Positions 8,225 through 63,013 of a stretch of DNA of 64,000 bases are shown here, in pieces (the stretch's first letter is position 1; each line of letters begins with the position of its first letter). The notes under the pieces are model-generated. The model was not told the DNA's origin, searched no databases, and saw only the letters and a program-made list of their open reading frames with translations. The stretch is from an uncultured Bacteroidales bacterium. GTDB lineage: Bacteria > Bacteroidota > Bacteroidia > Bacteroidales > Paludibacteraceae. The position numbers were made by a program, and so were the translations under genes. The DNA is taken from contig CACZRD010000054.1 in NCBI GenBank assembly GCA_902783545.1, positions 2,171 through 66,170 on the forward strand. Reading direction: 5' to 3'.

Positions 8225-8505
8225 CAAACAAAGACCTTATACAATCCGTGTCGCAGAAGGCGGCACTGACCAAGCAGGCAACGGAGCAGTTGCTGCATCA
8301 GACCGTGCAGATCATCACCCAGACGCTCAAAGATGGCGGCGACGTGAAGATCCAGCATTTCGGTTCGCTCAGCGTAAGCGCGCGCAAAGCACGCACAGTA
8401 ACTAACCCGCGTAACGGTAAGAAGACGGAGGTCCCCGCCAAACAGGTGTGGACTTTCCGAGCCAACAACAGGCTGAAGAACACCGTGAATAACGCTGAAA
8501 GTTGA
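8221..8505 (+). CDS. HU family DNA-binding protein
   Basis: 94 aa with an HU/IHF-like fold sequence (KIQHFGSLSVSARKARTVTNPRNGKKTEVPAK). ATGA overlap with the rimO stop. Confidence 0.85.
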   Translation: MTNKDLIQSVSQKAALTKQATEQLLHQTVQIITQTLKDGGDVKIQHFGSLSVSARKARTVTNPRNGKKTEVPAKQVWTFRANNRLKNTVNNAES

Positions 8506-8525
8506 ATGTTGAAAGTTGAAAGATT
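8494..8525. repeat. Degenerate 7-bp-period array (CTGAAAG/TTGAATG/TTGAAAG...) spanning the HU stop codon
   Basis: Read directly from the sequence: gctgaaagttgaatgttgaaagttgaaagatta. Confidence 0.8.
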
Positions 8526-9620
8526 ATGGCAGAGCATTTGACATTAGTAGCATTGCGTCGTGCATTGAGTGCACGCGCAGGAGTGAGTGAGAAGGTAGCA
8601 GACGACTTCCTCAACGCCCTGACCGGCAGTATTCAGGACGGATTACAGAAAGACGGCAAGGTGACCGTCAACGGTCTGGGCACCTTCGCCATACAGGATG
8701 TACCCGCACGCGAGAGCGTGAACGTAGCCAACGGCGAACGGTTCACGATTGACGGATATAAGAAAGTAGTGTTCACCGCCGGCAACACGAAGCAATCGGC
8801 TGCCAGCAATCAGCGATCAGAGGATATTGACCCGCTGCAGAAACTTGGCGAGCAAGCCGAAGAGATCAAAGATATTCTGGGCGAACTCAGTGCAATGAGT
8901 ACGGAACCGACGGAACCCACGGAGGCTCCGGTAATTCCGATTATTCCGGAAGCTCCGGTTATTCCGGATATTCAGGATATTCAGGAAGCTCCAGCTTCTC
9001 CAGAACAGCCGGAATCTCCAGAACAACCGACAGCCACTCCGAAAGCCCCTGCCAAGCCGTTTAATCCGTGGCTGACAGGACTGATCACCATCGGCGTGTT
9101 CGCTATGCTGCTGGTTATCGCGTACTTCGTGCTACGTCATCAGATTGTCAACTGGGCAGACGGCATGCGCTCAACCATCGAGCAGCGCGTGAGCACCGAC
9201 GAACAAGTGCCGAGTGCGGAATTCACAGAACCCACGGAAGCACCGGCTACTCCGGAGGCTGCAGAGGCTCCGGAAACTCCAGAAAATTCAGAGACTTCGG
9301 CAGCTCCGGAAATTCAGGAAGCTCCGGCAGTACCATCCAATCCCTGGCTCGATGACTCGCAGCGTAAGTTCACGGAGTTTCAGCGCGACGAGATAGTCGG
9401 GCAAGACAGTCGTCTGGCTTGGATAGCCAAGAAACGTTACGGTGAGAAAGCCTACTGGGTGTTCATCTACGAGGTAAACCGCGACCGCCTGAAATCGCCC
9501 GACCATGTGATGCCGGGCATGCAACTGCGCGTACCCAAATTGCCGAAAGAACTGCGTAACCCGAACGATCCCGAGACGAAAGCCCTACTCGACCGATTGA
9601 GCGAGCAGTACCTTAAATAG
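8526..9620 (+). CDS. Membrane protein with an N-terminal HU-fold domain, Pro/Glu-rich low-complexity segments on both sides of a single TM helix, and a C-terminal LysM-like domain
   Basis: 364 aa. The parts are an HU-like N-terminus (KVTVNGLGTFAIQDVPARESVN), a TM helix (WLTGLITIGVFAMLLVIAYFVL), TEPTEAP/PEAPVIP repeats, and a C-terminus (RLAWIAKKRYGEKAYWVFIYEVNRDRLKSPDHVMPGMQLRVP). Confidence 0.7.
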   Translation: MAEHLTLVALRRALSARAGVSEKVADDFLNALTGSIQDGLQKDGKVTVNGLGTFAIQDVPARESVNVANGERFTIDGYKKVVFTAGNTKQSAASNQRSEDIDPLQKLGEQAEEIKDILGELSAMSTEPTEPTEAPVIPIIPEAPVIPDIQDIQEAPASPEQPESPEQPTATPKAPAKPFNPWLTGLITIGVFAMLLVIAYFVLRHQIVNWADGMRSTIEQRVSTDEQVPSAEFTEPTEAPATPEAAEAPETPENSETSAAPEIQEAPAVPSNPWLDDSQRKFTEFQRDEIVGQDSRLAWIAKKRYGEKAYWVFIYEVNRDRLKSPDHVMPGMQLRVPKLPKELRNPNDPETKALLDRLSEQYLK

Positions 9621-9655
9621 TTGAAAGTTGAAAGTTGAAAGATTAAAGGTGGAAG
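9621..9655. repeat. 7-bp-period array (TTGAAAG x3, ATTAAAG, GTGGAAG) filling the whole spacer between the HU-TM-LysM stop and the uvrA start
   Basis: Read directly. TGA occurs at 9622, 9629 and 9636, so it falls in all three frames. Confidence 0.85.
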
Positions 9656-12502
9656 TTGGCTGAGGGAGTGATCCATATTGAGGGCGCACGAACAAACAAC
9701 CTCAAGAACGTGAGCGTGGATATACCGCGCGACAAGATGGTTGTTATCACCGGCGTCAGTGGCAGCGGCAAATCGTCGCTTGCGTTTGACACGCTCTACG
9801 CCGAAGGCCAACGCCGATACGTAGAGAGCCTGAGCGCCTATACGCGGCAGTTCCTCGGGCGGATGCAGAAACCCGATGTGGATCAGATTGACGGTATTCC
9901 GCCTGCCATAGCCATTGAGCAGAAAGTCAGTTCGCGCAATCCGCGTTCTACCGTTGGTACCGTCACGGAGATCTACGATTATCTGAAGCTCCTATTTGCG
10001 CGCGCCGGCGTGACGATCTCGCCCGTGAGCGGCGCAGAAGTCAAACGTCACACCGTAGCCGATGTGCTTGCTTACCTGCGCTCCCTGCCAAACGGCACCA
10101 GAGTGATGCTGCTGGCAGCGGTTAACGGGTTAGCGGATGAGCGGATGAGCGAGTTAGCGGAGCAAGACAATCTCCAAGCCCGCGCCGCAGCATGGCTGAG
10201 CGAGGGTTATTCGCGACTGCTGCATGTACTCGAAGACGGCAGTGCGGATATACTGCGATTGAGCAGTAGCTTGAGCCCGGAGTTGATAAGCGACATAAGC
10301 AACGTCTATCTGCTCGTGGACCGCATCATCGCCGATGGCGAGCAAGCCACCGAGAACCGCTTTGCGGACTCCATACAGACTGCGTTCTTCGAAGGCAAAG
10401 GTGAGTGCTACCTGCGCGTTGAACTACCGGCAATCAGCAATCAGCAATCAGCGGACAATATTCAGATGGTGCATTTCTCCGAACGCTTCGAGGCTGACGG
10501 TATCCATTTCATCGAACCCACCGAACATCTGTTTAACTTTAACAACCCGCTCGGCGCGTGCCCGACATGCAACGGCTTCGGCAACATCATCGGCATCGAT
10601 GCCGATCTGGTGGTGCCCGACAAGTCCAAGAGTATCTACGAAGATGCCATAACCTGCTGGCGTGGTGAGAAGATGAGCGCCTGGCGCGATGAGTTGATCC
10701 GCCACGCCGCGGAGTTCGACTTCCCTATACATACCCCGTTCTACGCCCTCACACCCGAACAGAAACAACTCATCTGGACGGGCAACGCGTATTTCCGCGG
10801 ACTGAACGACTTCTTCCGCATGTTAGAGAAAGACCAGTACGCAAAGATTCAGTACCGCGTTATGCTTGCACGTTTCAAGGGTAAGACCACCTGCCCGGAC
10901 TGCCGTGGTATGCGTCTGAGGAAAGAGGCGGAATATGTGTGGGTTGGCGGCAAGAGAATTACCGATGTTGCGGCGATGCCCGAGAGCGAGGTTATGGAGT
11001 GGATTACGCATCTCGAACAACTGCAATCTGCCGGCGACAAACATCTTGCCGGCATGAGCGAACTGATCATGGAGATCAAGAGTCGCCTGCAGTTCATGCA
11101 CGATGTAGGACTCAGTTATCTCTCGCTTAACCGAATGGCATCCACGCTCTCGGGCGGTGAGAGCCAGCGTATTAACCTCGCCAAATCCTTGGGTAGCAGT
11201 CTGGTAGGCTCGCTCTATGTGCTGGACGAACCGTCTATCGGTCTGCATGCACGCGACACGCAACGGCTCATCCATGTGCTGCACGAATTGCGCGACCTGG
11301 GTAACACCATCGTGGTCGTTGAGCATGACGAGGATATCATGATGGCAGCGGATCACATGATAGAGATTGGTCCTAAGGCAGGCAGCCACGGCGGTGAGAT
11401 CACCTATGTCGGCAAGCCGCGACTGCAGCAGTTCCCCTCGGTTATACCGCCAGAGCGCCGGCATTGGAGTAACTACATCGAGATCATCGGTGCAGCCGAG
11501 AACAACCTGCAAAATCTCAACGTCAAGTTCCCGCTTGGCGTACTCACCGTCATCACAGGCGTCAGCGGCAGCGGCAAATCGTCGCTGGTGAGCAAGGTGC
11601 TCTACCCCGCCCTGAAGAAGCACTACGGCGGTATAGCCGCCGAACACACAGGCGACTATGGTAGCCTGAAAGGCAGCATGCACCTCATTAGAGACGTGGA
11701 GTTTGTTGACCAGAACCCATTAAGCAAATCCTCGCGTTCGAACCCCGTGACGTACATGAAAGCGTTCGACGAGATACGCCGACTCTTCGCAGACCAGCAG
11801 GCCTCGAAGCAGATGGGCTTCACACCGGCGCACTTCTCGTTCAACACCCCGGGAGGGCGCTGCGAGGAGTGCCAGGGCGAGGGCACGATAACCATTGAGA
11901 TGCAATTCATGGCGGACATCGTCATCGAGTGCGAGCACTGCCATGGCAAACGATACAAACAAGATGTTTTGGAAATAACCTTCGGCGGCAAGAACATCTA
12001 CGATATTCTCGATTTGACCGTGGACGAAGCTATCGACTTTTTCACGGAACATAATTGTGCGAAAGTTGTTCGGCTACTGAAGCCATTGCAAGACGTAGGT
12101 ATCGGATATGTCAAGCTCGGTCAGTCAAGCAGCACCCTCTCCGGCGGTGAGAGCCAGCGCGTAAAGCTCGCCTCGTATATCGCACAGGAGAACAGCCAAC
12201 CGACAATGTTCATCTTCGACGAGCCAACCACAGGTCTGCATCACAGCGATGTGATTGTGCTGCTCAATGCGCTGGAGCGGTTGATCAGCAAAGGTCACAC
12301 CGTGGTAGTCATTGAGCACAACCCCACGCTGATCATGGCAGCCGACCACATCATCGACCTCGGTCCCGAAGGCGGCAAAGACGGCGGCAGGATCGTCGCC
12401 GAGGGCACTCCCGAACAGATCATGCAATGCCCACAGAGTTACACCGGTCAAGCGCTGAAAACCAACAGTTACTTTAAGAAAACAAACGACTCACCGAAGT
12501 GA
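9656..12502 (+). CDS. uvrA: Excinuclease ABC subunit A
   Basis: 948 aa with two Walker A motifs ([14 protein letters not shown] and [14 protein letters not shown]), two LSGGESQR signatures and CxxC zinc modules. After the upstream in-frame TAA (9644-9646), the only possible starts are TTG 9656 or GTG 9668. Confidence 0.93.
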
Positions 12503-12515: not shown

Positions 12516-12530
12516 GATAATGAATGTAGA

Positions 12531-13976
12531 TTATTTTACAACAACGGGTTGATGCTTGGGCACGAGGGCTTTCATGACGCACCAGCCGATGAGGTATGCG
12601 ACAGCGCATATGCAGAAGATGATCATGTAGCCTGCAGGTTTGCCGGTAAAGCCTGCGAACCTGAACGCTTCGCCCATGTCAGCAGCGTGGTCAAAAAGCA
12701 TACCTGAACCTTTGTTGATGAGGAACGACCCTACACCGCCGGCCATGGCGCCGATACCGGTGATGGTAGCGACAGCCGACTTGGGGAACATATCACCTGT
12801 GGTGGAGAAGATATTCGCCGACCAGGATTGGTGCGCTGCACCGACAATACCGATGATGATAGCTACAGCCCACGGTCCGTACACGCCACCAAGAGGTTGT
12901 GCGAAAAGAGCGAACAATGGGAAAAATGCGAAGATGAGCATTGCGCGCATACGCCCTGCATACGGCTCCATACCATGCTTCTCTACAAAGATCTTGGGCA
13001 GGTAACCGCCGAACAAGGAAATCACCGTCACAATCGCATAGAGCGTGAAGATCAGGGCTATACCTTGCGGGTCAGAAGCTTTGATACCATATTGGTCTTG
13101 GAAATAAGCCGGTGCCCAGAACAGGAAGAACCACCATACGCCATCGGTCATGAACTTACCAAACGCAAACGACCATGTCTGTTTGTGCTTGAATGCCTCG
13201 CCAAACGACATTTGTTTTTCGTCTGACGGCTGACTGCTGACGGCTGACTGCTTTTCATCGTCTTGTTGTATATACTCCAACTCAGCAGCATTCACGTGCT
13301 TGGACTCCATCGGTTTGTCATAGACAAAGATCCAGATACCAGCCCAGATGAAGCCTAATGCACCGATGATGATGAACGCCATCTCCCAGCCGAGGCTCTT
13401 GGCGAGCAGAGGGATAGTTGCCGGAGCAGCCAACGCACCTACCGACGCACCGGCATTGAACAGGGCGGTAGCAAATGCCCGGTCTTTCTTCGGGAAATAC
13501 TCAGCGGTTACCTTGATGGCTGCGGGGAAGTTACCCGCTTCACCCAATCCGAGGATCAGACGGCAAGCGAGGAACAAATAGACGCTCACCATCGATATAC
13601 TACTCACTATCGTGCCTGTCGCTTCCAACAAAGCCTGCTTGCTCTCCAAGCCAACGATATGCTCGGTTACAAAGCCGCAGCCTGCATGCAGTACAGCGCC
13701 GAGCGACCAAACGATGATCGCCCAGAGATAGCCTTTCTTCGTGCCCATCCAGTCGATGAACTTACCGGCGAAGAGGCAGAAGATAGCATACGCTATAGAG
13801 AACACACCGGTAATCGTTCCGTAGTCGGAGTCCGTCCAGTGGAATTCGGGTTGAATAAACTCTTTAAAGGTCAAGGACAGCACTTGGCGGTCCATATAAT
13901 TGACCGTAGTGGCGAAGAAAAGCATCGCACACATGACCCAACGCCAGTTGGTCATAAGTTTTTGTTGTGTACTCAT
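12531..13976 (-). CDS. exuT: MFS hexuronate transporter (ExuT-like)
   Basis: 481 aa, multi-TM MFS with an N-terminus (FFATTVNYMDRQVLSL) typical of ExuT-type transporters. It is the last gene of the hexuronate cluster. Confidence 0.8.
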   Translation of the reverse strand: MSTQQKLMTNWRWVMCAMLFFATTVNYMDRQVLSLTFKEFIQPEFHWTDSDYGTITGVFSIAYAIFCLFAGKFIDWMGTKKGYLWAIIVWSLGAVLHAGCGFVTEHIVGLESKQALLEATGTIVSSISMVSVYLFLACRLILGLGEAGNFPAAIKVTAEYFPKKDRAFATALFNAGASVGALAAPATIPLLAKSLGWEMAFIIIGALGFIWAGIWIFVYDKPMESKHVNAAELEYIQQDDEKQSAVSSQPSDEKQMSFGEAFKHKQTWSFAFGKFMTDGVWWFFLFWAPAYFQDQYGIKASDPQGIALIFTLYAIVTVISLFGGYLPKIFVEKHGMEPYAGRMRAMLIFAFFPLFALFAQPLGGVYGPWAVAIIIGIVGAAHQSWSANIFSTTGDMFPKSAVATITGIGAMAGGVGSFLINKGSGMLFDHAADMGEAFRFAGFTGKPAGYMIIFCICAVAYLIGWCVMKALVPKHQPVVVK

Positions 13977-13983
13977 AGGATAA

Positions 13984-14826: not shown

Positions 14827-14857
14827 TGTATTGTTAAATTGTTAAACTGTTAAGTTG

Positions 14858-15706
14858 TTAATTATGCCACTCGCTCCACGTTGCACCGAAGTAATAGGTG
14901 AGCGTGTCGCCGAGCTCATAGGGGCGGACGGCGACTAAGTTACCGTCCACGATATCCGTCAGTGTAGCGCCGGGTGTTTTTACAGAGATCTGGATGCGTC
15001 CTTGACTGGTACTACCGTTGTATTCGTAGTTCATGCGAGCCGCCTGTTTGTCGCTGAGCGCATCTTCCTCATAAAAGACATACCCAACCTCGGGAATCGT
15101 CAGGTAGTAGTCCACCGTGTCATGCAGATAGATTCCGCCACCCACCAAGAGCTGAGTGCTAATAGCTGACGGCTGATCACTCGTGAGTACCACCTCCGCT
15201 TTATTCTGCAACTGTCCCGCCTCTGCGGTGATGGTGAGCGACTCGCGGAGTATTTGTCCGGCAACGAGCAGGCTGTCGTACTCCAGGCGGAAGACGAAGC
15301 GGTCGGGTGTCTGTTCGATGATCTCCCAACGATCGTAAGGACCACCTATCCAAGTCTGCTCATCGGCTATAACGACGAGACCGCCAGCACCGCAGGTGTG
15401 AGCCACCTTGTAGCAATCGAGGTTGCCGTCGTAGTTGATGTGGTAGGGACGATGGTCGCGGAGTTCGCGTCCGTACATCGTGTCGATGACGAGCGCGGGA
15501 CTGTTCTTGAGCCATAGGTCAACACCGTTGCTTGGGTTCTCAGGCTTGAGGGCTGCACCGTAGAGGCGGAACGCCGCGTACTCGTTCTCCCAAGCAAAGT
15601 CATCCTTGCGCTCTGGCACGTAGCGACCATAGACCTTGGCTTCCTGTTGAGTCTGGCAAGCAGCAAGGGTCAACAATGCTATAGCGAAAAGTAGAATCTT
15701 TTTCAT
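14858..15706 (-). CDS. DUF4861-like lipoprotein (a family typically found next to kduI/kduD)
   Basis: 282 aa with a lipobox (LTLAACQ) and the motif RKDDFAWENEYAAFRLYG. A 1-nt overlap with the kduD stop. Confidence 0.55.
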   Translation of the reverse strand: MKKILLFAIALLTLAACQTQQEAKVYGRYVPERKDDFAWENEYAAFRLYGAALKPENPSNGVDLWLKNSPALVIDTMYGRELRDHRPYHINYDGNLDCYKVAHTCGAGGLVVIADEQTWIGGPYDRWEIIEQTPDRFVFRLEYDSLLVAGQILRESLTITAEAGQLQNKAEVVLTSDQPSAISTQLLVGGGIYLHDTVDYYLTIPEVGYVFYEEDALSDKQAARMNYEYNGSTSQGRIQISVKTPGATLTDIVDGNLVAVRPYELGDTLTYYFGATWSEWHN

Positions 15707-33320: not shown

Positions 33321-33344
33321 TATATTAAATTTGAAATTTGAATT

Positions 33345-34760
33345 CTAAAATTTGAAATAATTCTTAGCGTTATTGTAGCAAATATCCTCCACCATCTGTT
33401 GAACACGAGCTTTCTCGTAACCGGTGTACGGGATCATGCCGTTCTCGATGTCGTTGCCGAGGACGTTACAGAGCGTGCGACGGAAGTACTCATGACGCGG
33501 GTACGAGAGGAAAGAACGGCTGTCGGTCAACATGCCGACGAGACGAGAGAGAAGACCAAGGTTCGAGAGCGCCATCATCTGCTTCTCCATACCGTCCTTC
33601 TGGTCGAGGAACCACCAGCCCGAGCCGAACTGAATCTTACCGGGAACAGAGCCATCTTGGAAGTTACCCAACATGGTTGCGATTACTTCGTTGGCGCACG
33701 GGTTGAGGTTATAAAGGATGGTCTTAGCCAGATGTCCTTCGCTGTTCATCTCATCGAGGAAATGACTCATGGCCTTAGCCGTTGTGAACTCACCGATGGA
33801 GTCAAAACCGGTGTCGGCACCAAGTTGTGCGAACATCTTCGAGTTATTGTTACGGATTGCGCCGTAGTGGTATTGCTGCGTCCAACCCGAAGCGTAGTCC
33901 ATCTCCGCCTGAGCGTGCAGGTAAGCGTGCTTGTACTGACGGATCTCGTATGTGGTCAGTTCTTTGCCAGCGAGGGCTTTCTCGAAGATGGCGTTGATCT
34001 CTGCATCGGTGTACGGCTCGTCGTAGAACTCCTCTATACCGTGGTCACTCAGGCGGCAACCCATCGACTCAAAGAAGTCATGACGTTTCTGGAGGGCATC
34101 TACTAAATCGCCAAAATTGGCGATTGCAACACCGCTTACAGCGGAGAGTTTCTCGATGTATGCTTTCCAAGTAGCGGCTTCGATGTTCATACCTGCGTCG
34201 GGACGCCAAGTCGGCAACATGCGTACCTCTGCGGTCGGGTCTTCCTTTACCATCTTGTGCCACTCAAGCGAGTCAGCCGGATCATCGGTCGTACAAACGA
34301 GCGCTACGTGGTAGTGCTTCATGAGTCCGCGCGGACAGAACTTCGGATCGTTGGCAATCAGGTCGTTGCACTTGTCATAGATCGCACGTGCCGTCTCGGG
34401 ATTCAGTCGCTCCTCTATGCCGAAGGCGGTCTTGAGCTCCAGATGCGTCCAGTGGTAGAGCGGGTTGCGGAAAGTATAAGGAACGGTCTCTGCCCATTTC
34501 TCGAACTTCTCCCAGTCCGTTGTGTCCTTACCCGTGCAGTAACGCTCATCCACACCGTTGGAGCGCATAGCACGCCACTTGTAGTGGTCACCCATGAGCC
34601 AGATCTGTGCGATTGACTCAAAACGTTTGTTCTCCGCCACCATCTGCGGAATAAGATGACAATGGTAGTCAATGATCGGCATCTTAGCTGCATGCTGGTG
34701 GTACAACTCCTGTGCAGTCTGAGTCTGCAACAGGAAATCTTTGTCCATAAATGGTTTCAT
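33345..34760 (-). CDS. uxaC: Glucuronate (uronate) isomerase
   Basis: 471 aa with the canonical N-terminus FMDKDFLLQTQTAQELYHQHAAKMPIIDYHCHL. Confidence 0.93.
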   Translation of the reverse strand: MKPFMDKDFLLQTQTAQELYHQHAAKMPIIDYHCHLIPQMVAENKRFESIAQIWLMGDHYKWRAMRSNGVDERYCTGKDTTDWEKFEKWAETVPYTFRNPLYHWTHLELKTAFGIEERLNPETARAIYDKCNDLIANDPKFCPRGLMKHYHVALVCTTDDPADSLEWHKMVKEDPTAEVRMLPTWRPDAGMNIEAATWKAYIEKLSAVSGVAIANFGDLVDALQKRHDFFESMGCRLSDHGIEEFYDEPYTDAEINAIFEKALAGKELTTYEIRQYKHAYLHAQAEMDYASGWTQQYHYGAIRNNNSKMFAQLGADTGFDSIGEFTTAKAMSHFLDEMNSEGHLAKTILYNLNPCANEVIATMLGNFQDGSVPGKIQFGSGWWFLDQKDGMEKQMMALSNLGLLSRLVGMLTDSRSFLSYPRHEYFRRTLCNVLGNDIENGMIPYTGYEKARVQQMVEDICYNNAKNYFKF

Positions 34761-34780
34761 ATCATTAGTATTTAAAGTTA

Positions 34781-40756: not shown

Positions 40757-43528
40757 TTACTTGATCGTCTGTCCTATTGCGTTGTACTCAATGCCGCCGC
40801 GGATGAAGATCAGTTGTCCGTCGCGCATCACCTTCCGCACGCTGACCGCTGACTGCTGACCGCTGACCGCCTCAACAGCCGTCTCGTCTCCTATCACGAC
40901 CGCCTCACCGAATCCGCCGCGGGCGTTAGCCTTACGGACAGCTATCAGGGCGTCATCCGGGAAGATCTCCTCAGCCAGCTGTGTACCGGTCATCATCATT
41001 GCATTGCCGTTCTCCGCTTCTACCAGGTAGATTCCCTCTGCTTCGATATTTTGCAGATCGCATGCTGCCTGCTTGGCATCGTTGGCAGCGGTAGCAGCCC
41101 ACTCGCCGAGGGTGTACTCCATCGTATAAGTCGCAGCCTCATCAGCCGTCAGAACGGTCTGAATATCCTGTGTGGCGTTAGCGCTCTTGGTATCAATGAA
41201 GGTCACTACGTTGCTTGCAGGTGTGAGAACAGTGCCGTCTGCCAGATGGGTGTTGTACTCGCCGAATTGCGGCCACGCGTTCGGGTTCATCAGCTCTTTC
41301 GTCCAGCGCTCGATCTTACTGCCGTCCGTGAAGCTGAACTCACCTTCGCTATAATCGAACAAGGTGTTGAGGAAAGCCACTTTCGGCGAGTTGTTCCATG
41401 CGCGGCCGAGCGATACGACCGGGCACTCACTCATGAGCGTACAGCCCTCAAACACGTAACCTTTGTCGCTTGCCTGACCGTTATTCGCCGTCAGTGCATC
41501 GCTACCACCGCCGTCTTTCTTGCGCATCTCGGCATACAGCAGGTTGTTCTTGAAATACACACTGCCGTCACCGCAGATGAAATCGACAGCACCGTGGATC
41601 TCGCAATCCTCCATGTACCTGACAGCCCCCGGCAGGTTGCTGTAGTATGTATCTTGGTGGGACAGCAGACGTACGTTCTTGCATACGGTCTTCGTTCCCT
41701 GATCCCACAAGGCTACGGCACGACCGTTGTCGTTCTTGTAGTAATCCAGATCGTTCTGGATCGTCAGGTCTTGCAGATAGATACCGCTCACGTTCTTTGC
41801 AATGCGCAGGGTGGCTGTCTTGTCTATACTCTCGTTCTTAACGTCCGGAGCGTTCTTTATTCTCACCTCTGTCATCGACTGACCGATGATCGCTATGTTG
41901 CTCTTGCTGATGGTCGTCAGTACGGTCTCGCCCAGGTCGTACGTGCCGTTCGGCAGGAAGATCTTGTCGCCGCTCTCAGCCATCGCGAGCGTCAGGATGA
42001 ACGCTGCTGCGTCACCCGACGGCACCTCATAATAACCTGTTGTCGTATTTTTCTCCGGGAATTCATTCACATTATATACGACTACCTTGTGGATATACTG
42101 CTTGGCCGTCCAGTTGATGGTCAGCCAGCCGGCATTACCGGTATATTTAGCCGTCACCTCTGTGCCGTCCGGAGTCTCGTTCTTTACTACTGCATAGGAC
42201 GCCAGCTCTTGCTCGCTATCCATCACTTTGACATCACCCGACTCCGAATATTTGCAGAGCGTAACGACTACCACCGCGTTACCGGCTACTTGCACGCGGA
42301 TCGAACCGTTCTGACCGAAGAGCCAACCGTGATTGTTATAATAACTGCCGTCATACACCTCTACCGTCTCGTGATCCTCCGGGTAGAAGATCGGGTTGGC
42401 GAAGTCATAGGTCTGTACGCTACCTATAATCACATCCTCGATCGGCGTCACCTTGGCTTGGATCGTCGTATTGCCATTGATGATATCGCCCACTTTCGCT
42501 TTCTTGTCGTTCATGTAGAACCAGCCGCGGAACTTATCTGTTGCTGCTATAGCCGGCAGGTCTGCCTCGGTGTAAGGGATAGCCTCAAGGGTTGCACCTT
42601 CGATGGTCTCGACCTTGCCCAGCACACCACCGTTCTGGTCCTTGAACGTAACCGTGCAAGGCGTTACGTCACAAGCCTCTGCGAAGAAGTACGGCACGTA
42701 CGTGTTACCTGCCACCTCAAATGTCAGCGTACTTGCACCACCCGTGTAGGTGTACGTCACGAACTGATCGAAATGACCTGCCGTCTCGCCGCAAGCGTCT
42801 TTGTTATTCACGGTCGCATAAGCCAGTCCGTCTTTCAGGACGCTGATCGGCGTGCCGCTGTACTGGCAGGCACCGATGGTGAACTTCACCGGGCCGTCAA
42901 CAGGCACCGTGATCGTACCGCCTTGTACACCATGCTGACCATCTTTATAGGTAGTGCCTGCGATGCTTACGCCTTCAGGCAGTACGCCGCCTTCGGGGAG
43001 TAGCACTGTATAAGGGTTGTCACGGAACTCGATCTTGAAGTCCACGAACGTACGGGCTACGTTCTCCTTGAACTCGATCTTGCTCAATACTCCCTCGGAA
43101 CTTGTCTTACGCTCGATGTACACACCGGTCACCTCTGACGACAGTTCAATCGTCGCTGACCCGCCAAATTCTACATTTTCAGTGTCAGCGATCTTCTCTC
43201 CCTTGACCGGATTCTCTCCGTCAGCTTTCGTTGCGTTATATACAGAAACGGCATAAGCAGTCTGCGCTGTGCGGTTGGCGAATGTCAGTTTCAACTTACC
43301 TGCCACATTCGCTTTCTTAAAATATGCCCAACCGCCGTTGTTCAGCTTTACGCCTTTTAATCCGTTGTTCGTTCCGGCAGCGTCATTGACCTTACTGCCG
43401 TAATACAGTCCGTTGTCCGGATTAGCACTCGGAGCCTGCTCCGTGTAGTCCCACAGCAGGTCATTCGTTCCTGCCATCATGGTAAGGCTCGTCAGAGCCG
43501 CAAACATCAAAGAATAGATTTTTCTCAT
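40757..43528 (-). CDS. CE8 pectin methylesterase, multi-module, with the short shared tail
   Basis: 923 aa with CE8 motifs SHQDTYYSN, GAVDFICGDG and LGRAWNNSP. The tail is KVMRDGQLIFIRGGIEYNAIGQTIK. Confidence 0.85.
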   Translation of the reverse strand: MRKIYSLMFAALTSLTMMAGTNDLLWDYTEQAPSANPDNGLYYGSKVNDAAGTNNGLKGVKLNNGGWAYFKKANVAGKLKLTFANRTAQTAYAVSVYNATKADGENPVKGEKIADTENVEFGGSATIELSSEVTGVYIERKTSSEGVLSKIEFKENVARTFVDFKIEFRDNPYTVLLPEGGVLPEGVSIAGTTYKDGQHGVQGGTITVPVDGPVKFTIGACQYSGTPISVLKDGLAYATVNNKDACGETAGHFDQFVTYTYTGGASTLTFEVAGNTYVPYFFAEACDVTPCTVTFKDQNGGVLGKVETIEGATLEAIPYTEADLPAIAATDKFRGWFYMNDKKAKVGDIINGNTTIQAKVTPIEDVIIGSVQTYDFANPIFYPEDHETVEVYDGSYYNNHGWLFGQNGSIRVQVAGNAVVVVTLCKYSESGDVKVMDSEQELASYAVVKNETPDGTEVTAKYTGNAGWLTINWTAKQYIHKVVVYNVNEFPEKNTTTGYYEVPSGDAAAFILTLAMAESGDKIFLPNGTYDLGETVLTTISKSNIAIIGQSMTEVRIKNAPDVKNESIDKTATLRIAKNVSGIYLQDLTIQNDLDYYKNDNGRAVALWDQGTKTVCKNVRLLSHQDTYYSNLPGAVRYMEDCEIHGAVDFICGDGSVYFKNNLLYAEMRKKDGGGSDALTANNGQASDKGYVFEGCTLMSECPVVSLGRAWNNSPKVAFLNTLFDYSEGEFSFTDGSKIERWTKELMNPNAWPQFGEYNTHLADGTVLTPASNVVTFIDTKSANATQDIQTVLTADEAATYTMEYTLGEWAATAANDAKQAACDLQNIEAEGIYLVEAENGNAMMMTGTQLAEEIFPDDALIAVRKANARGGFGEAVVIGDETAVEAVSGQQSAVSVRKVMRDGQLIFIRGGIEYNAIGQTIK

Positions 43529-43713: not shown

Positions 43714-43750
43714 TTGTTGTTTTAACAGCTGATCGCTGACTGCTGATCGC

Positions 43751-44592: not shown

Positions 44593-44756
44593 TACACCAT
44601 TGGCAAATATTTAGTCCCTAATTGCCCAACTATCAGCTATCGGCTATCGGTTATTACCTATCGCCAATCGACTATTTTTATACTCTTCAGTTAGTCGATG
44701 ACCATTGTGTTCTTAGTAGGAACACAGCAGGGTTATGTCTGCTTATAGTCAGCACT

Positions 44757-44816
44757 CGTTGTCGTGTTGTTGCCGTGTCGTTGCCGTGTCGTTGCCGTCT
44801 TTTTGCCGTGTTTTGC
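44757..44816. repeat. Approximately 11-bp-period tandem repeat (GTCGTTGCCGT-like units)
   Basis: Read directly: ...gttgttgccgtgtcgttgccgtgtcgttgccgtctttttgccgtgttttgc. Confidence 0.8.
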
Positions 44817-44865: not shown

Positions 44866-44892
44866 CAAAAAAAGCAGCCCAAGCGGGCTGCT
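44866..44892 (-). terminator. Intrinsic terminator ending the PL1-giant-CE12-439aa transcription unit
   Basis: A perfect 8-bp stem (AGCAGCCC / GGGCTGCT), a 4-nt loop, and a run of 7 U on the minus-strand RNA. Confidence 0.8.
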
Positions 44893-44898
44893 TTTGAT

Positions 44899-44968
44899 GT
44901 TAAGCTGTTAAACGGTTTAGCCGTTAGGCGGTTAAGCTGTTAGGCGGTTAAGCCGTTAAACTGTTAAC
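44899..44968. repeat. 8-bp-period degenerate array (GTTAAGCT/GTTAGGCG/GTTAAGCC...) abutting the stop of the 439-aa gene
   Basis: Read directly; about 8 units. Confidence 0.85.
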
Positions 44969-46283: not shown

Positions 46284-46363
46284 GATTTAAATAAATTTAG
46301 TTAATAATAGTGTTATCTTGAGATTACCTCATGTATTCTTTACTCCTTCACTCCTCTACTCCT

Positions 46364-47743
46364 TTACTCTTTCACTCCTTCCACCCTCACATTACTCAAG
46401 TAGATATACTTGCCGGAGCGCGGGGTTGCTTCGTCGTTGAGCCATGGCAGGATGCGGATATGCAACGTCTGTCCGGCAGGAACAGTGAGATGCGTAGGCA
46501 CAATCTTCACCGTTATCGGGGTGCGTTGCGGCATAGCAACCTTCTCGTAGAACGTGTGCACATCGGTGAAATTCTCGCCGAAACCCGTGTTGATGTGGCA
46601 ACTCATCGTTGACGTGCCTACTGCCGCCAGATCCATCATGATGCCGGCGATGCGCAGGGCAGAATCCGCGGGGGCGGTGACAGCCAGGTCGATATAGCGC
46701 ACGGCATTCTCATCGATCTCGTCAGCCGGCCACGGGGTCTTCGTCTTGCCGTTGTCGGAGTTGTGGAACCGCTGCATGCCGCCCTTGGTATCAGCGCAGA
46801 GGTTGCGCGTGGAGAGTTGATAGTTGAAAGCTGAAAGTTGAAAGTTCTCGGCTCTTGACTCTTGGCTCTCAACTCTTGACTCTTGGCTAATCTCCGGCAG
46901 CTCTGCCGGAATAGTGATATACTCCGCGAGAATTCCTGCCTCCTTGAGCAGCTCGGCTGCAAGGCGGGCAATCATCTTCGCTCCTAATTCCGAGGTGTGG
47001 GTCTTATCGCCCTGGCAGAACAGATTCGCCGTGCAGTACGCATCGCCGTATTGCAGGTACAGGTCATGCGTAGCAGTAGTCAGGTCGATATAGGGCACAT
47101 CCATCTGAGCCGCCACCTGGCGCATCTGCCAGACATAGTCCATCGAGTGGTCGTCGGCAGGAACGGACTGATTCTCCAGCAGCACCCCACCCTCTATCTT
47201 ATTGAACTTATCACCCAGATCGTGCTGACCATTACGGCGCAAGGTAACGGAGTCCACAAAGTACTTGCGGCATATAGGTCCTACTAACACGGGCGTACAC
47301 CCGAGCGCGCGTACCTCATCTATAAAACGGATGAGGTTAGCTTTGTAGGTCGTGTTCGGGCACGTGCCGCGCAGGTCGGTGAGAGCAGGCTGACCATTGG
47401 CTACGAGGTAGTCGTTGTATTCGAGGACATCCACGCCGTTGCATTTCTCGTCGTTGTGCGCAAACTGTATGAGCACGTAGTCACCGACGCTCATCTGCGT
47501 CTTCACTGACGGCCAGAGATTAGGCTGCTCGTAGAACGTACGCGTCGATGCGCCCGACTTGCCGCGGTTGTTGACAGTCACATAGGTCGAGTCGAAGAAC
47601 AGACCGAGGTACGTCCCCCACCCGCGTTTGTCCGTGGCGGAAGGTTTGTAGTCCGACATCGTGCTGTCGCCTATAGTGTGTACCTTGACGGCGCTCACCG
47701 GCAGACACAGCACCGCTGCCAATATGGTAAGGACTTTTTTCAT
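46364..47743 (-). CDS. CE12/SGNH rhamnogalacturonan acetylesterase fused to a C-terminal beta-sandwich domain through a repeat-encoded linker
   Basis: 459 aa with SGNH blocks GDSTMSDY, GKSGASTRTF and GDKTHTSELGA. The linker is SQESRVESQESRAENFQLSAFNYQLST. Confidence 0.8.
   Translation of the reverse strand: MKKVLTILAAVLCLPVSAVKVHTIGDSTMSDYKPSATDKRGWGTYLGLFFDSTYVTVNNRGKSGASTRTFYEQPNLWPSVKTQMSVGDYVLIQFAHNDEKCNGVDVLEYNDYLVANGQPALTDLRGTCPNTTYKANLIRFIDEVRALGCTPVLVGPICRKYFVDSVTLRRNGQHDLGDKFNKIEGGVLLENQSVPADDHSMDYVWQMRQVAAQMDVPYIDLTTATHDLYLQYGDAYCTANLFCQGDKTHTSELGAKMIARLAAELLKEAGILAEYITIPAELPEISQESRVESQESRAENFQLSAFNYQLSTRNLCADTKGGMQRFHNSDNGKTKTPWPADEIDENAVRYIDLAVTAPADSALRIAGIMMDLAAVGTSTMSCHINTGFGENFTDVHTFYEKVAMPQRTPITVKIVPTHLTVPAGQTLHIRILPWLNDEATPRSGKYIYLSNVRVEGVKE
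46816..46888. repeat. Two adjacent short-period arrays inside the CE12 gene, encoding the inter-domain linker
   Basis: gttgatagttgaaagctgaaagttgaaagtt, followed by ctcggctcttgactcttggctctcaactcttgactcttggct. Confidence 0.8.
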
Positions 47744-58258: not shown

Positions 58259-60015
58259 AACTGGAAGTAGATGAACGGCTGCATGTCGGCGGTGATGAAC
58301 TGGTAGGCGAGCAGCACGGCTGCGGCGGCGGCGAGGATGATCAGCGGCAGAGGCATAGCAGCGAACCACAGGCGATAACGACGCTTGAAGCGATCGGGCA
58401 GCCAGTGGATGATCATGCCGGCAACGAACAAGAGCACGACGTACTTGTACTCCTGAATGAACGGCAGGATGATCGAGTTATCCCACGCGCAGCCTATCTG
58501 ATGCACCATCTGCTTGGCAGTCTGCCAGGCTTCGCGGTTGGCGGTAGCCGGATCGAGGTTACTTGCCGAACGGAAGAACAGACGGGTGAAGGAGATGAAC
58601 ACGAAGGTCTGGATGATTGCCCACGCATTGTCTATCCAACGTACGAAACGGTTGGTATCCGTACGGAAGCCCCACAGCCAGCCGACGTACCAGATAGACG
58701 TACCGACCCAGAGGATGAGTACCCACACCTCTACCATATTTACGAGCGCGTACGCGTCGTGCGTGAGTTGGCGCGCGGCAACCATGGCGACTGCCAACAG
58801 AAGCATGAGGATATAACGGATATGTTCGTTCAAGGCACGCCAACACTTGTTAATAATCATTCCCACCCCATTGAGTGCACCCCAGATGACAAAGTTCCAG
58901 CTTGCGCCGTGCCACAAGCCGCCGATGAGCATCGTGAGGAACGAGTTGCAGTTCGACGCAAGAAGTTTGCTTGCGGGACGCCCGAGCAGCGTGCGGTTGC
59001 CGCCGAGAGGGATATAGACATACCCTTTCAGCCATCGCGAGAGCGACTGATGCCAGCGACGCCAGAACTCCTGCGGGTTGCGGGACTTATACGGCGAGTC
59101 GAAGTTCTGCGGCAGGTAGAATCCCATAAGCAGCGCCACGCCGATAGCGATATCCGTGTAGCCGGAGAAGTCCGCATAGACCTGCATCGAGTACGTGAGC
59201 AGGGCGAAGAAGTTCTCGAAGCCGGAGAAGAGCATCGGGCTCTGGAACACACGGTCGATGAAGTTGACTGCAAGGTAGTCGGAGAGGATGATCTTCTTCA
59301 ATAGGCCATTCAGAATCCAGAACACCGCTATGCCGAACTGCCGGCGGGTGAGGAAGAACGGACGATAGAGCTGCGGCACGAACTCCGAGGCGCGGACGAT
59401 AGGGCCGGCTACGAGCTGCGGGAAGAACGAGACGTAGAAACCGAAGTCCAAGATGTTCTTCACCGGCTCAATCTTCCCACGGTAGATGTCCACCGCGTAG
59501 GAGATAACCTGGAAGATATAGAACGATATACCCACCGGCAGGATGATCCGATCGACGAGGAATCGCCCATCGTGACTGAAACCGTTGCCTATATACGCGA
59601 AGATATCGAAGACCTGCACCGACGTGCCGAACAGGTCATTGAAGATGTTCGTGAAGAAATACGCGTACTTGAAGTAGAACAGCAGCGAGAGGTCGATGCA
59701 TACACTGAGAATCAGCCAAAGCTTGCTGATCGCTGATTGCTGACTGCTGATTGCTTTATAGATCCGCTTGCCGATGAGCCAGTCGCTGAGCGTGATGAAG
59801 GCGAGGATGAGCAGGAAGATACCAGAGGTCTTGTAATAGAAGAACCACGACGCAGCCATGAGGTAGATATTGCGGGCGTGGAGTCGACCGCGGTTGACTC
59901 CGGCGCGCTGCATGATGAGGGTGAAGCCGGCATAGACGATAGCGAAGAACGCCCAGAAGTAGAACTGGGTGAACAGCAACGGGTGCGCGGGATCATATGT
60001 CAGCCACTCTAACAT
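58255..60015 (-). CDS. MBOAT-family O-acyltransferase (AlgI/DltB/PatA-like)
   Basis: 586 aa, multi-TM, with motifs WRRWHQSLSRWLKGYVYIPLGGNR and GGLWHGASWNFVIWG. Its stop codon overlaps the convergent regulator's stop (58255-58258). Confidence 0.85.
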   Translation of the reverse strand: MLEWLTYDPAHPLLFTQFYFWAFFAIVYAGFTLIMQRAGVNRGRLHARNIYLMAASWFFYYKTSGIFLLILAFITLSDWLIGKRIYKAISSQQSAISKLWLILSVCIDLSLLFYFKYAYFFTNIFNDLFGTSVQVFDIFAYIGNGFSHDGRFLVDRIILPVGISFYIFQVISYAVDIYRGKIEPVKNILDFGFYVSFFPQLVAGPIVRASEFVPQLYRPFFLTRRQFGIAVFWILNGLLKKIILSDYLAVNFIDRVFQSPMLFSGFENFFALLTYSMQVYADFSGYTDIAIGVALLMGFYLPQNFDSPYKSRNPQEFWRRWHQSLSRWLKGYVYIPLGGNRTLLGRPASKLLASNCNSFLTMLIGGLWHGASWNFVIWGALNGVGMIINKCWRALNEHIRYILMLLLAVAMVAARQLTHDAYALVNMVEVWVLILWVGTSIWYVGWLWGFRTDTNRFVRWIDNAWAIIQTFVFISFTRLFFRSASNLDPATANREAWQTAKQMVHQIGCAWDNSIILPFIQEYKYVVLLFVAGMIIHWLPDRFKRRYRLWFAAMPLPLIILAAAAAVLLAYQFITADMQPFIYFQF

Positions 60016-60037
60016 TTACGATTTATTCATTTACCAT

Positions 60038-61420
60038 TTATTCATTTATTGAGTCATTTGGTGATTGGACTATTGTATCAGCAAGGGCTTCGGTGAAGAA
60101 GTCGTAATCTTCGAGCAGTTGCGCGGCGAGCATCTCGCCGACTTTCTTGGCTCCGGCACGGGTGAAGTGAATCATATCATCCCCGGCGAGCCCCATATCT
60201 CGCCAACTGATCATGCTCCCTGCGCCGCCCATGAGGCGGAAGAGCGAGTAGTACGCTCCACCCTCTTCGGCAACCATCGTTGTCAACGCACTGTCCAACT
60301 GCGGCAGCAAGGGATACGTCTGCTGTTCGCCATCAACGGTAGTGATCATATCTGACGGTCCGATGAACAGCAACGAAGCGTTCGGGGCTGCAGACATCAG
60401 GAAGTGAATCTGTTGGCGCATAGCCAGCACGTACTTATCCAAGCCTGCCTTCGTGCGGATAGACGGCATCGCATTGCCGCCGAACTGCATGATGATCAGG
60501 GCAGTGTTCGTCTCGCGGAAGTAGTCAGCGAACATCTGTTTGTTCATCGTGGTGAAGTTCGTTCCCGCCGCACCGCGCATGGGGATATTATCCACCTGCA
60601 CGCCTGTGGCTGTCTCCAGCGAGATACCGTAGACGTAGCCTTCGCCTTCGAAGTGGATGATTGCGCTGCGATGCGTTGCACTGTCAGTAACGAAAGTGAA
60701 TCGGACACTATCCGTGCAGAGGACGCGGATGCGGTCGTAGTCGTAGGTAGGTACGCGGTCGCGGAGCAGCTCAATGTTGACATCAATCGGCTCGGTGATA
60801 TATGCTACCTGTGCCATTGGTCCGTAGCGGTTGTCGTCCTTCAGACGCATGGACGACGGTCCGTACGCCACGTAACGCTTGATGGCAGAGTTGGGCACCT
60901 CGTGGCCGTTCTGCTCCAGGGTCTGTTTGGCAGTATAGGTGGGGATAGTCTGTACCATCGGCACGAGACCTATACCTCCCCCGCCAAAGCGGTCTTGCAG
61001 ACGGCGGCGGATGATCATCGATATGCGGTCTTCCTCGATCTGCGAGTCGCCGTAATGCACGATGCGGACGGACTGCTCGTCTGCCTTGCCAAGTGCCGCG
61101 TAGAACTGCGGGAGGAACAAAGTCGTCTGCGGCAATGTTTCCGGCAGCTTAACGACCTTCGGTTGGTCAGGAGTGCTATCCATGGCAGGCTGCCCGACAG
61201 GTTCAGCCGACAGGGTGTCGGCAACCGCAAGGACGGTGTCAACCAACGGCTCATCGTCTGCCAACAAACTATCCGGAGTTGTGCGGGCGGGGAGATCAGG
61301 TAAGAACGATTCGATAGAAGGAACACGCACCAGCTCGCTTCTGCCTGCGCCTACGACACACACCGCCGCAAGAACGGCAAAGGTGGAGAGGATGCAGAGA
61401 AGGATCTGGTGGGGTTTCAT
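60038..61420 (-). CDS. SGNH/GDSL-type hydrolase/acyltransferase partner of the MBOAT protein
   Basis: 460 aa with an N-terminal TM/signal anchor, the Ser block HYGDSQIEED and the Asp-x-x-His block GDDMIHFT. Confidence 0.7.
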   Translation of the reverse strand: MKPHQILLCILSTFAVLAAVCVVGAGRSELVRVPSIESFLPDLPARTTPDSLLADDEPLVDTVLAVADTLSAEPVGQPAMDSTPDQPKVVKLPETLPQTTLFLPQFYAALGKADEQSVRIVHYGDSQIEEDRISMIIRRRLQDRFGGGGIGLVPMVQTIPTYTAKQTLEQNGHEVPNSAIKRYVAYGPSSMRLKDDNRYGPMAQVAYITEPIDVNIELLRDRVPTYDYDRIRVLCTDSVRFTFVTDSATHRSAIIHFEGEGYVYGISLETATGVQVDNIPMRGAAGTNFTTMNKQMFADYFRETNTALIIMQFGGNAMPSIRTKAGLDKYVLAMRQQIHFLMSAAPNASLLFIGPSDMITTVDGEQQTYPLLPQLDSALTTMVAEEGGAYYSLFRLMGGAGSMISWRDMGLAGDDMIHFTRAGAKKVGEMLAAQLLEDYDFFTEALADTIVQSPNDSINE

Positions 61421-61459
61421 TAACGGATTAGTGGATTAGCGGGTTAATGGATTAGCGGT
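61421..61459. repeat. 8-bp-period array (TTAACGGA/TTAGTGGA/TTAGCGGG/TTAATGGA/TTAGCGG) filling the spacer between trkH and the SGNH gene
   Basis: Read directly. Confidence 0.85.
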
Positions 61460-62977
61460 CTATTTTCTCCACAGGGCGGGTGAGAAGAGCAGTATAACGG
61501 TGAAGATCTCCAGACGGCCGATGAGCATCACGAGGGTCATCACCCACTTGGCAACAACGGGGAAGTTCGCGTAGTTACCTGCGGGACCGTATTGTCCGAG
61601 GCTCTCGCCTACATTACCCATTCCGCTGACAGCCGTTGCAAACGCCTCGCTGGGCGATATGCCGCAAGCGATGAACACGAACGTAGCGAGGATGATGATC
61701 ACGACATAGAAGAACAGGAACGCCATGACATTGTTCGTCACGGTCTGCGTCAGCGGTCGTCCGTTGAAGCGGATAGGAATAACCGCATTCGGGTGAATAC
61801 GACGGTACATCTCGGCGTAGGCGTTCTTGGCGAAGATCGCTATACGTACCCACTTGATACCACCGGCAGTACTGCCTGAGGCACCGCCTGTGAACATCGT
61901 GAGGAACACAAACACCCAGATGATCTTCGGCCAGAGCATATAGTCCGCCGAAGCAAAACCTGTACTGGTGATCGTGGCGCAGATGGTAAAGAAGGCATTG
62001 CGGAACGCCCACTCGACATGCGTGGCATAGCCGCGGATAACATTATTGCCCACCAGCCTGGGCAACCATTCAGCCTGATTGATCCATGTGTAATAGACAA
62101 GCAATGCGATGGTCAGTATAGCCGTGCAGATAAGCACAGCGCCTACGTACCAACGCGTCTCTTCATCGTGATATAGTTTCTCGGGTTTGCCACGCATAAA
62201 GAAGATCAGTTGCGTGAAGTTGATGCCCGACAGCAACATAAACACGGCAACCGTATATTGGATAGCCGGACTGCAGAGCATAAGTGAGGTGTTCTTGGTG
62301 GAGAATCCGCCGGTGGAGATCGTAGCCATGGAGTGACAGACAGAGTCGAACATATCCATGCCGAAGAAGTTCAGCAGTAACGTTTCAAGAACGGTGAGCA
62401 ACACATATGTACCCCACAGCAGTCGTGCCGTGCTGTTGATGCGCGGTGATAGTTTCTCATAGCTCACACCCGTCACCTCTGCTGCATAAAGCTGCATTCC
62501 ACCCAAGCCGAACAGTGGGAGAACCGCCACACTGAGCACGATGATACCCATACCTCCGAGCCATTGCATGAGCGCACGCCAGAGTAAGATAGCGTGGGAC
62601 ATGACTTCGACATTCTCAATAACCGTAGCGCCCATGGTCGAGAAGCCTGCCATGGTCTCAAACCACGAGTCGGTAACCGTATTCAGCGCGCCGGACAGAT
62701 AGAACGGCAACAAGCCAAACACCGAGAACACGATCCAGACGAGTGCCACAATCAGGTAGCCCTCGCGCTCACCGACACGCCTCGGTGCGTCGCGGCCAAT
62801 GCGCATAGCTATCCAGCCGGCAATGAGCGTGATGAACGTGCTCACCGCAAACGCACCACCATCCGGATCGCCGTACAGATACGCCACGACGGTTGGTGCT
62901 GCCATGAACAGCGCCTCGATGAGCAGCAGCGAGCCGTACGTGCGGAATACTATTTTCCAGTTGAATGTTCTTGTCAT
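61460..62977 (-). CDS. trkH: TrkH-family potassium uptake protein
   Basis: 505 aa, multi-TM, with TrkH-like repeated M1-P-M2 segments (GFSTMGAT, STGGFSTKN, TSTGFASAD). It is adjacent to trkA. Confidence 0.88.
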   Translation of the reverse strand: MTRTFNWKIVFRTYGSLLLIEALFMAAPTVVAYLYGDPDGGAFAVSTFITLIAGWIAMRIGRDAPRRVGEREGYLIVALVWIVFSVFGLLPFYLSGALNTVTDSWFETMAGFSTMGATVIENVEVMSHAILLWRALMQWLGGMGIIVLSVAVLPLFGLGGMQLYAAEVTGVSYEKLSPRINSTARLLWGTYVLLTVLETLLLNFFGMDMFDSVCHSMATISTGGFSTKNTSLMLCSPAIQYTVAVFMLLSGINFTQLIFFMRGKPEKLYHDEETRWYVGAVLICTAILTIALLVYYTWINQAEWLPRLVGNNVIRGYATHVEWAFRNAFFTICATITSTGFASADYMLWPKIIWVFVFLTMFTGGASGSTAGGIKWVRIAIFAKNAYAEMYRRIHPNAVIPIRFNGRPLTQTVTNNVMAFLFFYVVIIILATFVFIACGISPSEAFATAVSGMGNVGESLGQYGPAGNYANFPVVAKWVMTLVMLIGRLEIFTVILLFSPALWRK

Positions 62978-63013
62978 TGTTAGCTGTCAGTTATCAGCGG
63001 TCAGCAGTCAGTT

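Follow-up and report, generated by a model that had tools for sequence, protein, structure and literature searches.

The short spacers between genes in the stretch of DNA analysed here raise a simple question: why are so many of them made of imperfect tandem arrays with a unit of seven or eight nucleotides? The stretch (the window) is 64,000 nt long and corresponds to C54:2171-66170, on contig CACZRD010000054.1 of the assembly GCA_902783545.1. This home genome, from an uncultured Bacteroidales bacterium of the Paludibacteraceae, comprises 1.92 Mb in 149 contigs (52% GC, 78% complete). The UvrA encoded in the window is 66-71% identical to the UvrA of Paludibacteraceae metagenome-assembled genomes from rumen and gut, and exact-protein look-ups recovered the same species from many cattle-rumen assemblies. 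A sequence-only reading of the window had listed twelve arrays at gene junctions and had offered slippage products, all-frame stop pads and structure-free spacers as what they might be. Our results suggest that the arrays are slippage-prone heptanucleotide repeats that have been filtered by selection; this is the best-supported reading and, on balance, we think it correct.

The excess of arrays with this period is genome-wide. Tandem Repeats Finder (TRF), used at a score of at least 30, called 457 period-7 arrays in the whole genome, against 23-46 in the order-1, order-3 and order-5 Markov simulations that set the chance level. The corresponding counts were 159 against 33-50 for period 8, 141 against 7-9 for period 14 and 51 against 0-1 for period 21. 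A motif test that does not depend on TRF gave 144, 2 and 42 runs of three AAAT motifs at periods 7, 6 and 8, respectively; for three CAGC motifs the counts were 125, 7 and 1, and for four TGA motifs 198, 0 and 14, at the same three periods. The enrichment check at gene ends that the sequence-only reading had proposed was also run genome-wide with TRF, and it revealed both an excess over composition and an enrichment at junctions.

That enrichment was measured on a crude gene map derived from codon usage, with 1399 genes that take up 88% of the genome. Intergenic sequence holds 41% of period-7 array bases vs 12.3% of the genome, and array midpoints fall 0-40 nt 3' of a stop codon in 137 of the 457 cases and 0-40 nt 5' of a start codon in 143, an enrichment of approximately 10-fold both after stops and before starts. 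Arrays cover 22-27% of the bases of co-directional spacers of 16-50 nt, 1-2% of spacers longer than 150 nt and 0.57% of coding sequence. Many junction arrays extend from the stop codon to the next ATG or come after a TAnnTTTG -7 box, and some run on into signal-peptide n-regions. The earlier claim of a constant placement at junctions holds as an enrichment and fails as a rule, with 233 of the 457 arrays lying entirely within genes and 118 straddling a gene end. The further claim that nearly every short spacer is built in this way was overstated, since a period-7 or period-8 array is present in 113 of the 313 co-directional spacers of 16-50 nt genome-wide (36%); in the window it is about 7-8 of roughly 20.

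An assembly artefact, which had been named as a possible refutation, is not the explanation because identical arrays are found in more than 10 independent assemblies from ENA, Logan, JGI and NCBI. Contig ends touch a period-7 array in 7 of 298 cases. Two contigs start within long AAATCAG/ATTTCTG arrays of 12-14 units (C100:1-97 and C137:1-81), and these ends are probably the two sides of a single array too long for short-read assembly.

Comparison with other strains and with orthologous junctions shows how the arrays change. Strains were reached through exact-protein look-ups of other assemblies; one metagenome scan returned relatives at no more than 80% identity and no strains of the home species. 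Against strain ERZ1029116, which is 99.85-99.9% identical over the approximately 14 kb that could be aligned, the sole indels are two single-unit deletions of 7 nt, and both events (n=2) lie inside junction arrays, at window position 9619 (AGTTGAA) and at C17:8872 (GCCAAAA). In a 97.5% identical strain, an acyl-ACP thioesterase gene is longer by 24 in-frame nucleotides made up of GCCAAYR units. At the junction 5' of uvrA, the stop codon TAG of the home genome is followed by (TTGAAAG)x5. Of the relatives with an orthologous junction, L003 carries (TTTAGAG)x6 there and L008 one TTTAAAG unit, and the spacer of L001 and L011 is 1-3 nt long. Judged from these aligned junctions, the series is one of expansion in situ. 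Together with the two one-unit differences it supports the suggestion that the arrays are slippage products.

In the reading that we favour, hepta- and some octanucleotide simple-sequence repeats (SSRs) would arise and change size by gain or loss of whole units, most likely through strand slippage in replication or repair. The preference for seven may have its reason in mismatch repair, which 7-nt loops would escape. Loss of mismatch repair itself was considered as a cause and ruled out: MutL (MutL_C) is intact in the home genome, as it is in 115 of the 120 relatives, and such a loss is therefore not required. Selection would then decide which arrays persist. Stop-to-start spacers and 5' leaders would tolerate any number of units, whereas the only changes to survive within genes would be those of three units at a time (21 nt, or 7 aa), and for this reason arrays would accumulate at junctions and seem to 'build' the spacers. 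The orientation that survives in genes would be the one that is stop-free in every frame and encodes hydrophilic loop peptides rich in S, Q, A, N, K and P. Units such as TAAATGG would be amplified stop-plus-start junctions, and all-frame stops and low structure would be side effects.

The heptamer arrays in genes are in-frame insertions of about 21 nt, evenly distributed along the proteins, and the peptides that they encode have the composition just described. In uvrA, for example, the (GCAATCA)x3.3 array encodes ISNQQSA, an insertion of approximately 7 aa in a variable UvrA loop relative to the orthologues. Coding arrays carry CAGCNRT or GCCAANR on the sense strand with a bias of 24:0, 18:0, 17:0 and 16:0, which fits stop avoidance combined with peptide tolerance. 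Junction arrays are sense-oriented as well, with sense:antisense counts of 19:2 for AAATGGT, 7:0 for AAATCAC, 5:1 for AAAGTTG and 5:0 for AAAAGCC. The sequence-only reading had held that the unit differs from site to site; instead, units recur in a few strand-specific families, and the 457 arrays collapse to 136 canonical units, the commonest being AAATGGT (31), AACAGCC (29), AATCAGC (26), ACTGCTG (22), AAATCAC (21), ACCGCTG (17) and AAAGTTG (15). Six of the 457 belong to the TAACTGA class (AACTGAT).

Several observations weigh against slippage filtered by selection. Only 97 of 1172 heptamer classes make arrays, and the number of arrays is uncorrelated with the singleton abundance of the heptamers (Spearman -0.02; AAATGGT has singleton rank 934), a result that rules out seed abundance as the cause of the unit families. 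Variation between adjacent units is not uniform and sits at 1-2 positions (in CAGCNRT units, 0.50 at position 5 vs 0.06 at position 7), the units showing a conserved core of 4-5 nt plus variable positions. A 21-nt core, CACGGCTNTGCCGATCGAAAG (3x7), lies exactly in phase within arrays at 9-11 loci. Whole arrays can also differ between close strains. L161 is without the entire 48-nt TCGATWTA array 3' of the FKBP gene, and no seed is visible there, at 99.3-99.5% identity to the home type in two flanking genes (1.8% of coding sites differ over the 3.6-kb locus). The FtsL-PBP junction is wholly replaced between strains with flanking genes 98-99% identical, and other arrays in this strain comparison are stable. 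Finally, period-7 density, estimated from samples of 63-80 kb, has a spread of approximately 10-fold among congeners, from 0.025 to 0.275 arrays/kb, with 0.24 in the home genome.

Whole arrays that are present or absent between near-identical strains, and unit families that are independent of seed abundance, favour a different origin, which we nevertheless consider unlikely: the arrays could derive, as relics, solo arms or by-products, from small elements that colonise junctions, chiefly PF05635 (Avd-like) hairpin elements; these would have spread through insertion or ectopic conversion, with slippage only resizing the arrays later. In a sharper and likewise doubtful form of this proposal, a system that actively colonises junctions in a sequence-specific manner would have left the arrays as its footprint: the arms of PF05635 hairpin elements would be copied from junction to junction and persist as solo arms. 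Arm copying would explain why the units are species-specific, why the 21-nt core lies in phase and how whole arrays arrive between strains that are nearly identical.

Three small dispersed elements do occur alongside the arrays. The CACGGCTNTGCCGATCGAAAG core forms a mini-hairpin, CGGC-NNN-GCCG; the unit that flanks it is identical on both sides and differs among loci, and the copies are often in 5' leaders. This core is species-specific: the home genome has 9 exact-pattern copies, and none of 120 family genomes has more than one. The second element, core2, is a 23-nt unit, GACCGCTNCGCTNAAAGA, with 32 matches in the home genome. Palindromic TCGATNNN octamer arrays make up the third and recur in near-identical form at several junctions. 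Near-identical palindromic octamer arrays of the form (TCGATATN)x4-5 were seen at junctions on C3, C9, C16, C23 and C46, and one 48-nt (TCGATATN) copy is present or absent between L161 and L162, with flanking genes 99.3-99.5% identical. The earlier statement that the arrays are not a dispersed repeat family has to be qualified for these three elements and for the recurring unit families, and otherwise stands.

The only PF05635 gene of the home genome (23S-rRNA-IVP, four-helix-bundle; TIGR02436) is located at C1:12979-13293. Within C1:12767-13394 it is flanked by forward and reverse core2 units and by the TAATTAGGCTTT motif, and these flanks recur as five gene-less core2-TAATTAG-reverse core2 hairpins at other junctions (C23, C46 twice, C56 and C124). 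PF05635 genes are present in 85 of 121 family genomes. In all five relatives whose loci were inspected, the gene lies in the gap from a stop codon to the following ATG, with inverted heptamer arrays on both sides, as in L185, where the order is (AGCTACA)x12, gene, (TGTAGCT)n. By our tally, PF05635 is present in every one of the 20 genomes that have 10 or more AAATx4 arrays, and a count of 10 is not reached in any of the 36 genomes that lack it. Arrays with three or more copies were counted 12 times in 200 kb from PF05635-rich genomes and once in 180 kb from PF05635-negative ones. A link between PF05635 and heptamer arrays is supported at the level of the family, and not as an explanation of the window arrays. 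The association does not count as independent evidence, given that the compared genomes are kin, and PF05635-rich relatives are less array-dense than the home genome, where a single PF05635 gene stands against 457 arrays. Moreover, the window arrays and most home arrays are solo direct arrays that do not bracket a PF05635 gene. Inverted partners near home arrays were found for 26 of 221, vs 27-29 of 221 in reversed or complement controls; with no excess over control level, a hairpin-arm architecture of the home arrays is ruled out. The coding arrays do not fit an element origin either, and neither RAYT (PF01797) nor reverse transcriptase (PF00078) had a match in the home genome, which is 78% complete.

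We give rather little credence to the proposal that the junction arrays are functional mRNA leader elements, that is, periodic A-rich sites for S1, Csp or a CsrA-like factor or regulator that would tune initiation or coupling in the Bacteroidota, a phylum not thought to use Shine-Dalgarno pairing. The sense orientation of the AAATGGT and AAATCAC arrays at junctions agrees with such a role, as do the arrays that stop at the start codon or come after the -7 box, the conserved core within the units, the comparable A-rich heptamer arrays of many Bacteroidota and the presence of units of the TAACTGA type, for which the same proposal was made by MacGregor 2015 (PMC4679880). However, arrays occupy only about one third of short spacers, they are not conserved at orthologous junctions of species or even of strains, congeners prefer different units despite a common translation machinery, and the same periodicity is found within genes. 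Spacers with and without arrays are also alike in composition and folding: A content is 0.40 in both, simple arrays fold at a minimum free energy (MFE) of approximately 0, as do non-array spacers, and MFE per nucleotide is equal for array spacers, non-array spacers and shuffles. The last comparison does not support the idea that the arrays are structure-free spacers in any special sense.

It is very improbable that the arrays were selected as all-frame stop pads for out-of-frame or read-through ribosomes. The example given for that idea is correct, TGA occurring at 9622, 9629 and 9636, once in each frame, and stops in all three frames are present in 54% of array spacers vs 18% of non-array spacers; when lengths are matched, the figures for array and non-array spacers are 44 vs 8%, 38 vs 20% and 72 vs 29%. 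However, a stop triplet within a unit whose period is coprime to 3 yields all-frame stops automatically, and approximately 47% of random heptamers carry a stop triplet, as estimated from spacer composition. Moreover, 46% of array spacers are without all-frame stops, and the frequent units AAATCAC and AAAAGCC are stop-free. The stops are better described as a by-product of A/T-rich units and of a period coprime to 3. That chance low-complexity sequence or faulty assembly produced the arrays is next to impossible: many arrays are short and imperfect, and TRF rows with 2.1 copies do not exceed the chance level, but period-7 arrays exceed the Markov expectation 10-20-fold, the contrast of period 7 with periods 6 and 8 is sharp, and the same arrays occur in many independent assemblies.

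The arrays of the window are collected in the table. TRF calls arrays at 9 of the 12 junctions listed by the sequence-only reading. Two others (43728-43750 and 62978-63013) are below the TRF threshold, yet are clear heptamer arrays of 3-5 units by eye, and the last, at 34775-34800, was unconvincing on inspection by eye and is dropped. The array at 33327-33358 had been given a period of 8 and has a period of 7 according to TRF. Rfam had zero matches in the window.

Tandem arrays in the window (plain positions) and loci of the 21-nt core in the home genome (positions with a contig); p, period
Position	Strand	Feature	Called by
8496..8522	+	heptamer array TTGAAAG x3.9 (p7)	TRF
9619..9658	+	heptamer array TTGAAAG x5.7 (p7)	TRF
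14830..14861	-	octamer array, + strand ATTGTTAA x4 (p8), fills 31-nt spacer of minus-strand operon	TRF
33327..33358	-	heptamer array, sense AAATTTC/CAAATTT x4.6 (p7)	TRF
43728..43750	-	3-4 CAGCNRT-family units (sense GCGATCA GCAGTCA GCGATCA)	by eye
44630..44676	-	heptamer/21-nt array (p7/p21), CTATCGG-type, in 505-nt intergenic region	TRF
44898..44967	-	octamer array GTTAAGCN x8.8 (p8)	TRF
46338..46381	-	octamer array, + strand CTTCACTC x5.5 (p8), sense GGAGTRAA	TRF
60013..60050	-	AAATGGT-family array (p7/8/15), sense TAAATGG TAAATGA ATAAATCG TAAATG	TRF
61419..61458	-	octamer/16-nt array GGATTAGN (p8/16), fills 39-nt spacer	TRF
62978..63013	-	~4-5-unit heptamer array (sense AACTGAC TGCTGAC CGCTGAT AACTGAC)	by eye
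10430..10452	+	in-frame coding array GCAATCA x3.3 in uvrA	TRF
1327..1357	-	coding heptamer array TTAGCCG x4.4	TRF, gene map
4180..4214	-	coding heptamer array TTGGCTC x4.9, in infB	TRF, gene map
13223..13252	-	coding heptamer/14-nt array CTGACGG CTGACTG	TRF
40840..40870	-	coding heptamer array CGCTGAC x4.4, near 3' end of 923-aa gene	TRF
46815..46885	-	two neighbouring coding heptamer arrays: AGTTGAA x4.6, CTCTTGA x4.9	TRF
59723..59755	-	coding heptamer array TTGCTGA x4.7 (sense CAGCAAT family), in MBOAT gene	TRF
C50:3204, C52:11085, C98:21831, C125:1894, C36:29585, C76:15778		CACGGCTNTGCCGATCGAAAG core loci	
C65:2419, C89:4887, C92:5355, C124:71265, C135:12904	-	CACGGCTNTGCCGATCGAAAG core loci	

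The relation of the arrays to the neighbouring genes varies from junction to junction. The array at 8496-8522 covers the stop codon of an HU gene (94 aa) and all 20 nt of the spacer that separates this gene from a 364-aa HU-domain gene, and that at 9619-9658 fills the 35-nt spacer between the stop codon TAG (9618-9620) and the TTG start of uvrA at 9656. The array at 33327-33358 occupies a spacer of 24 nt and extends into the end of the next gene. At 43728-43750, directly 3' of the stop codon of the gene at 43751-44458, the plus-strand units are GCTGATC GCTGACT GCTGATC. The array at 44898-44967 lies between the stop codon of the gene at 44964-46283 and a hairpin followed by a T run (44877-44897) that resembles an intrinsic terminator. 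The array at 46338-46381 spans the stop codon of the gene at 46364-47743; its sense unit GGAGTRAA also places repeated AGGAG-like motifs just 5' of the ATG of the next gene. The array at 60013-60050 includes the stop codon of the preceding gene as well as the ATG with which the MBOAT gene starts. The array at 62978-63013, in which four TCAGNNN units are clear by eye, is TAACTGA/CAGC-like and fills a 36-nt spacer. In assembly ERZ1041988 the MBOAT gene is split into two open reading frames by a 44-nt deletion at window position 59662 (locus L112), outside any array. A period-11 array, GTTGCCGTGTT x5.5, is present at window 44758-44816. Period-11 arrays number 111 genome-wide vs approximately 37 expected, 83 of them intergenic, and are frequent in congeners too, at 7-15 per 63-80 kb; they constitute a separate periodic feature.

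The sequence-only reading had also called the arrays genome-specific, which is correct for the repertoire of units and incorrect for the phenomenon itself, patchy as it is across the family and the phylum. Counts were made in 120 family genomes and 200 Bacteroidota genomes. CAGC-type arrays number 125 in the home genome and no more than 7 in each of the family genomes, five congeners included. In contrast, AAATNNN x4 arrays, of which the home genome has 70, range from 0 to 146 per genome in the family, with many genomes at 0 and the top five at 146, 122, 110, 98 and 96. The Bacteroidota genomes are similarly patchy, with 0-293 per genome, and each Paludibacteraceae species favours its own units.

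This patchy, species-specific distribution matches the published picture of heptanucleotide long SSRs. According to two papers (PMC4679880, PMC4692102) that cite the long-SSR survey of Mrázek, Guo & Shah (2007 PNAS), heptameric SSRs are the most abundant class of long SSRs in many prokaryotes and polymerase slippage has been invoked for them; Burkholderia, cyanobacteria, actinobacteria and Xanthomonas are given as richest in that survey. The home arrays share with these the dominance of period 7, the non-coding, intergenic bias, a patchy phylogeny, a length that is variable between close relatives (here, two events of unit-number variation) and the attribution to slippage. They differ in coming from a rumen member of the Bacteroidales, in that half of them lie in frame within genes and in their concentration in very short operon spacers.

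TAACTGA heptamers directly 5' of start codons are described from Beggiatoaceae, cyanobacteria and five Bacteroidetes, including Paludibacter propionicigenes (PMC4679880). Forward tandem heptamers a few nucleotides 5' of starts are found here too, and the lack of correlation between singleton and repeat counts reported in that study (MacGregor 2015, PMC4679880) is reproduced. However, one unit dominates in that system, while many are used here (AAATGGT, AAATCAC, TTGAAAG, GCCAANR and CAGCNRT), with TAACTGA a minor one. The GGGAATC/GGGGAYT arrays of Xanthomonas and Nostoc vary between close relatives (Rehm 2015, PMC4692102); like these and the cyanobacterial STRR heptamers, the home arrays are intergenic, near starts and stops, and vary in length and sequence at the same junctions. 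The GGGAATC/GGGGAYT units are G-rich and quadruplex-capable, in contrast to the home units, which are A-rich or of the CAGC/GCCAA type and have no G-tracts. Repetitive extragenic palindromes and bacterial interspersed mosaic elements, which RAYT transposases mobilise, are likewise short dispersed elements in intercistronic spacers after stops, and the core2/TAATTAG hairpins and TCGATNNN arrays of the home genome resemble them. Most home arrays, however, are direct and non-palindromic, and no cognate Y1 transposase (PF01797) was found in this 78% complete genome.

The home arrays belong to a known, unexplained class of bacterial heptanucleotide repeats. For cyanobacteria, Xanthomonas and Beggiatoaceae, repeats of this kind have been on record for decades and, to our knowledge, neither their mechanism nor their function has been established. 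Our analysis adds the rumen Paludibacteraceae as an array-rich lineage with many near-identical public assemblies, so that gain and loss of units, turnover of whole arrays and in-frame insertions in proteins can be traced at strain resolution. It also demonstrates that the choice of units is non-random, and it supports a link between heptamer arrays and PF05635 in the Paludibacteraceae. For the genomes that carry them, the arrays interrupt short-read assemblies, displace start-codon calls and put low-complexity insertions into conserved proteins.

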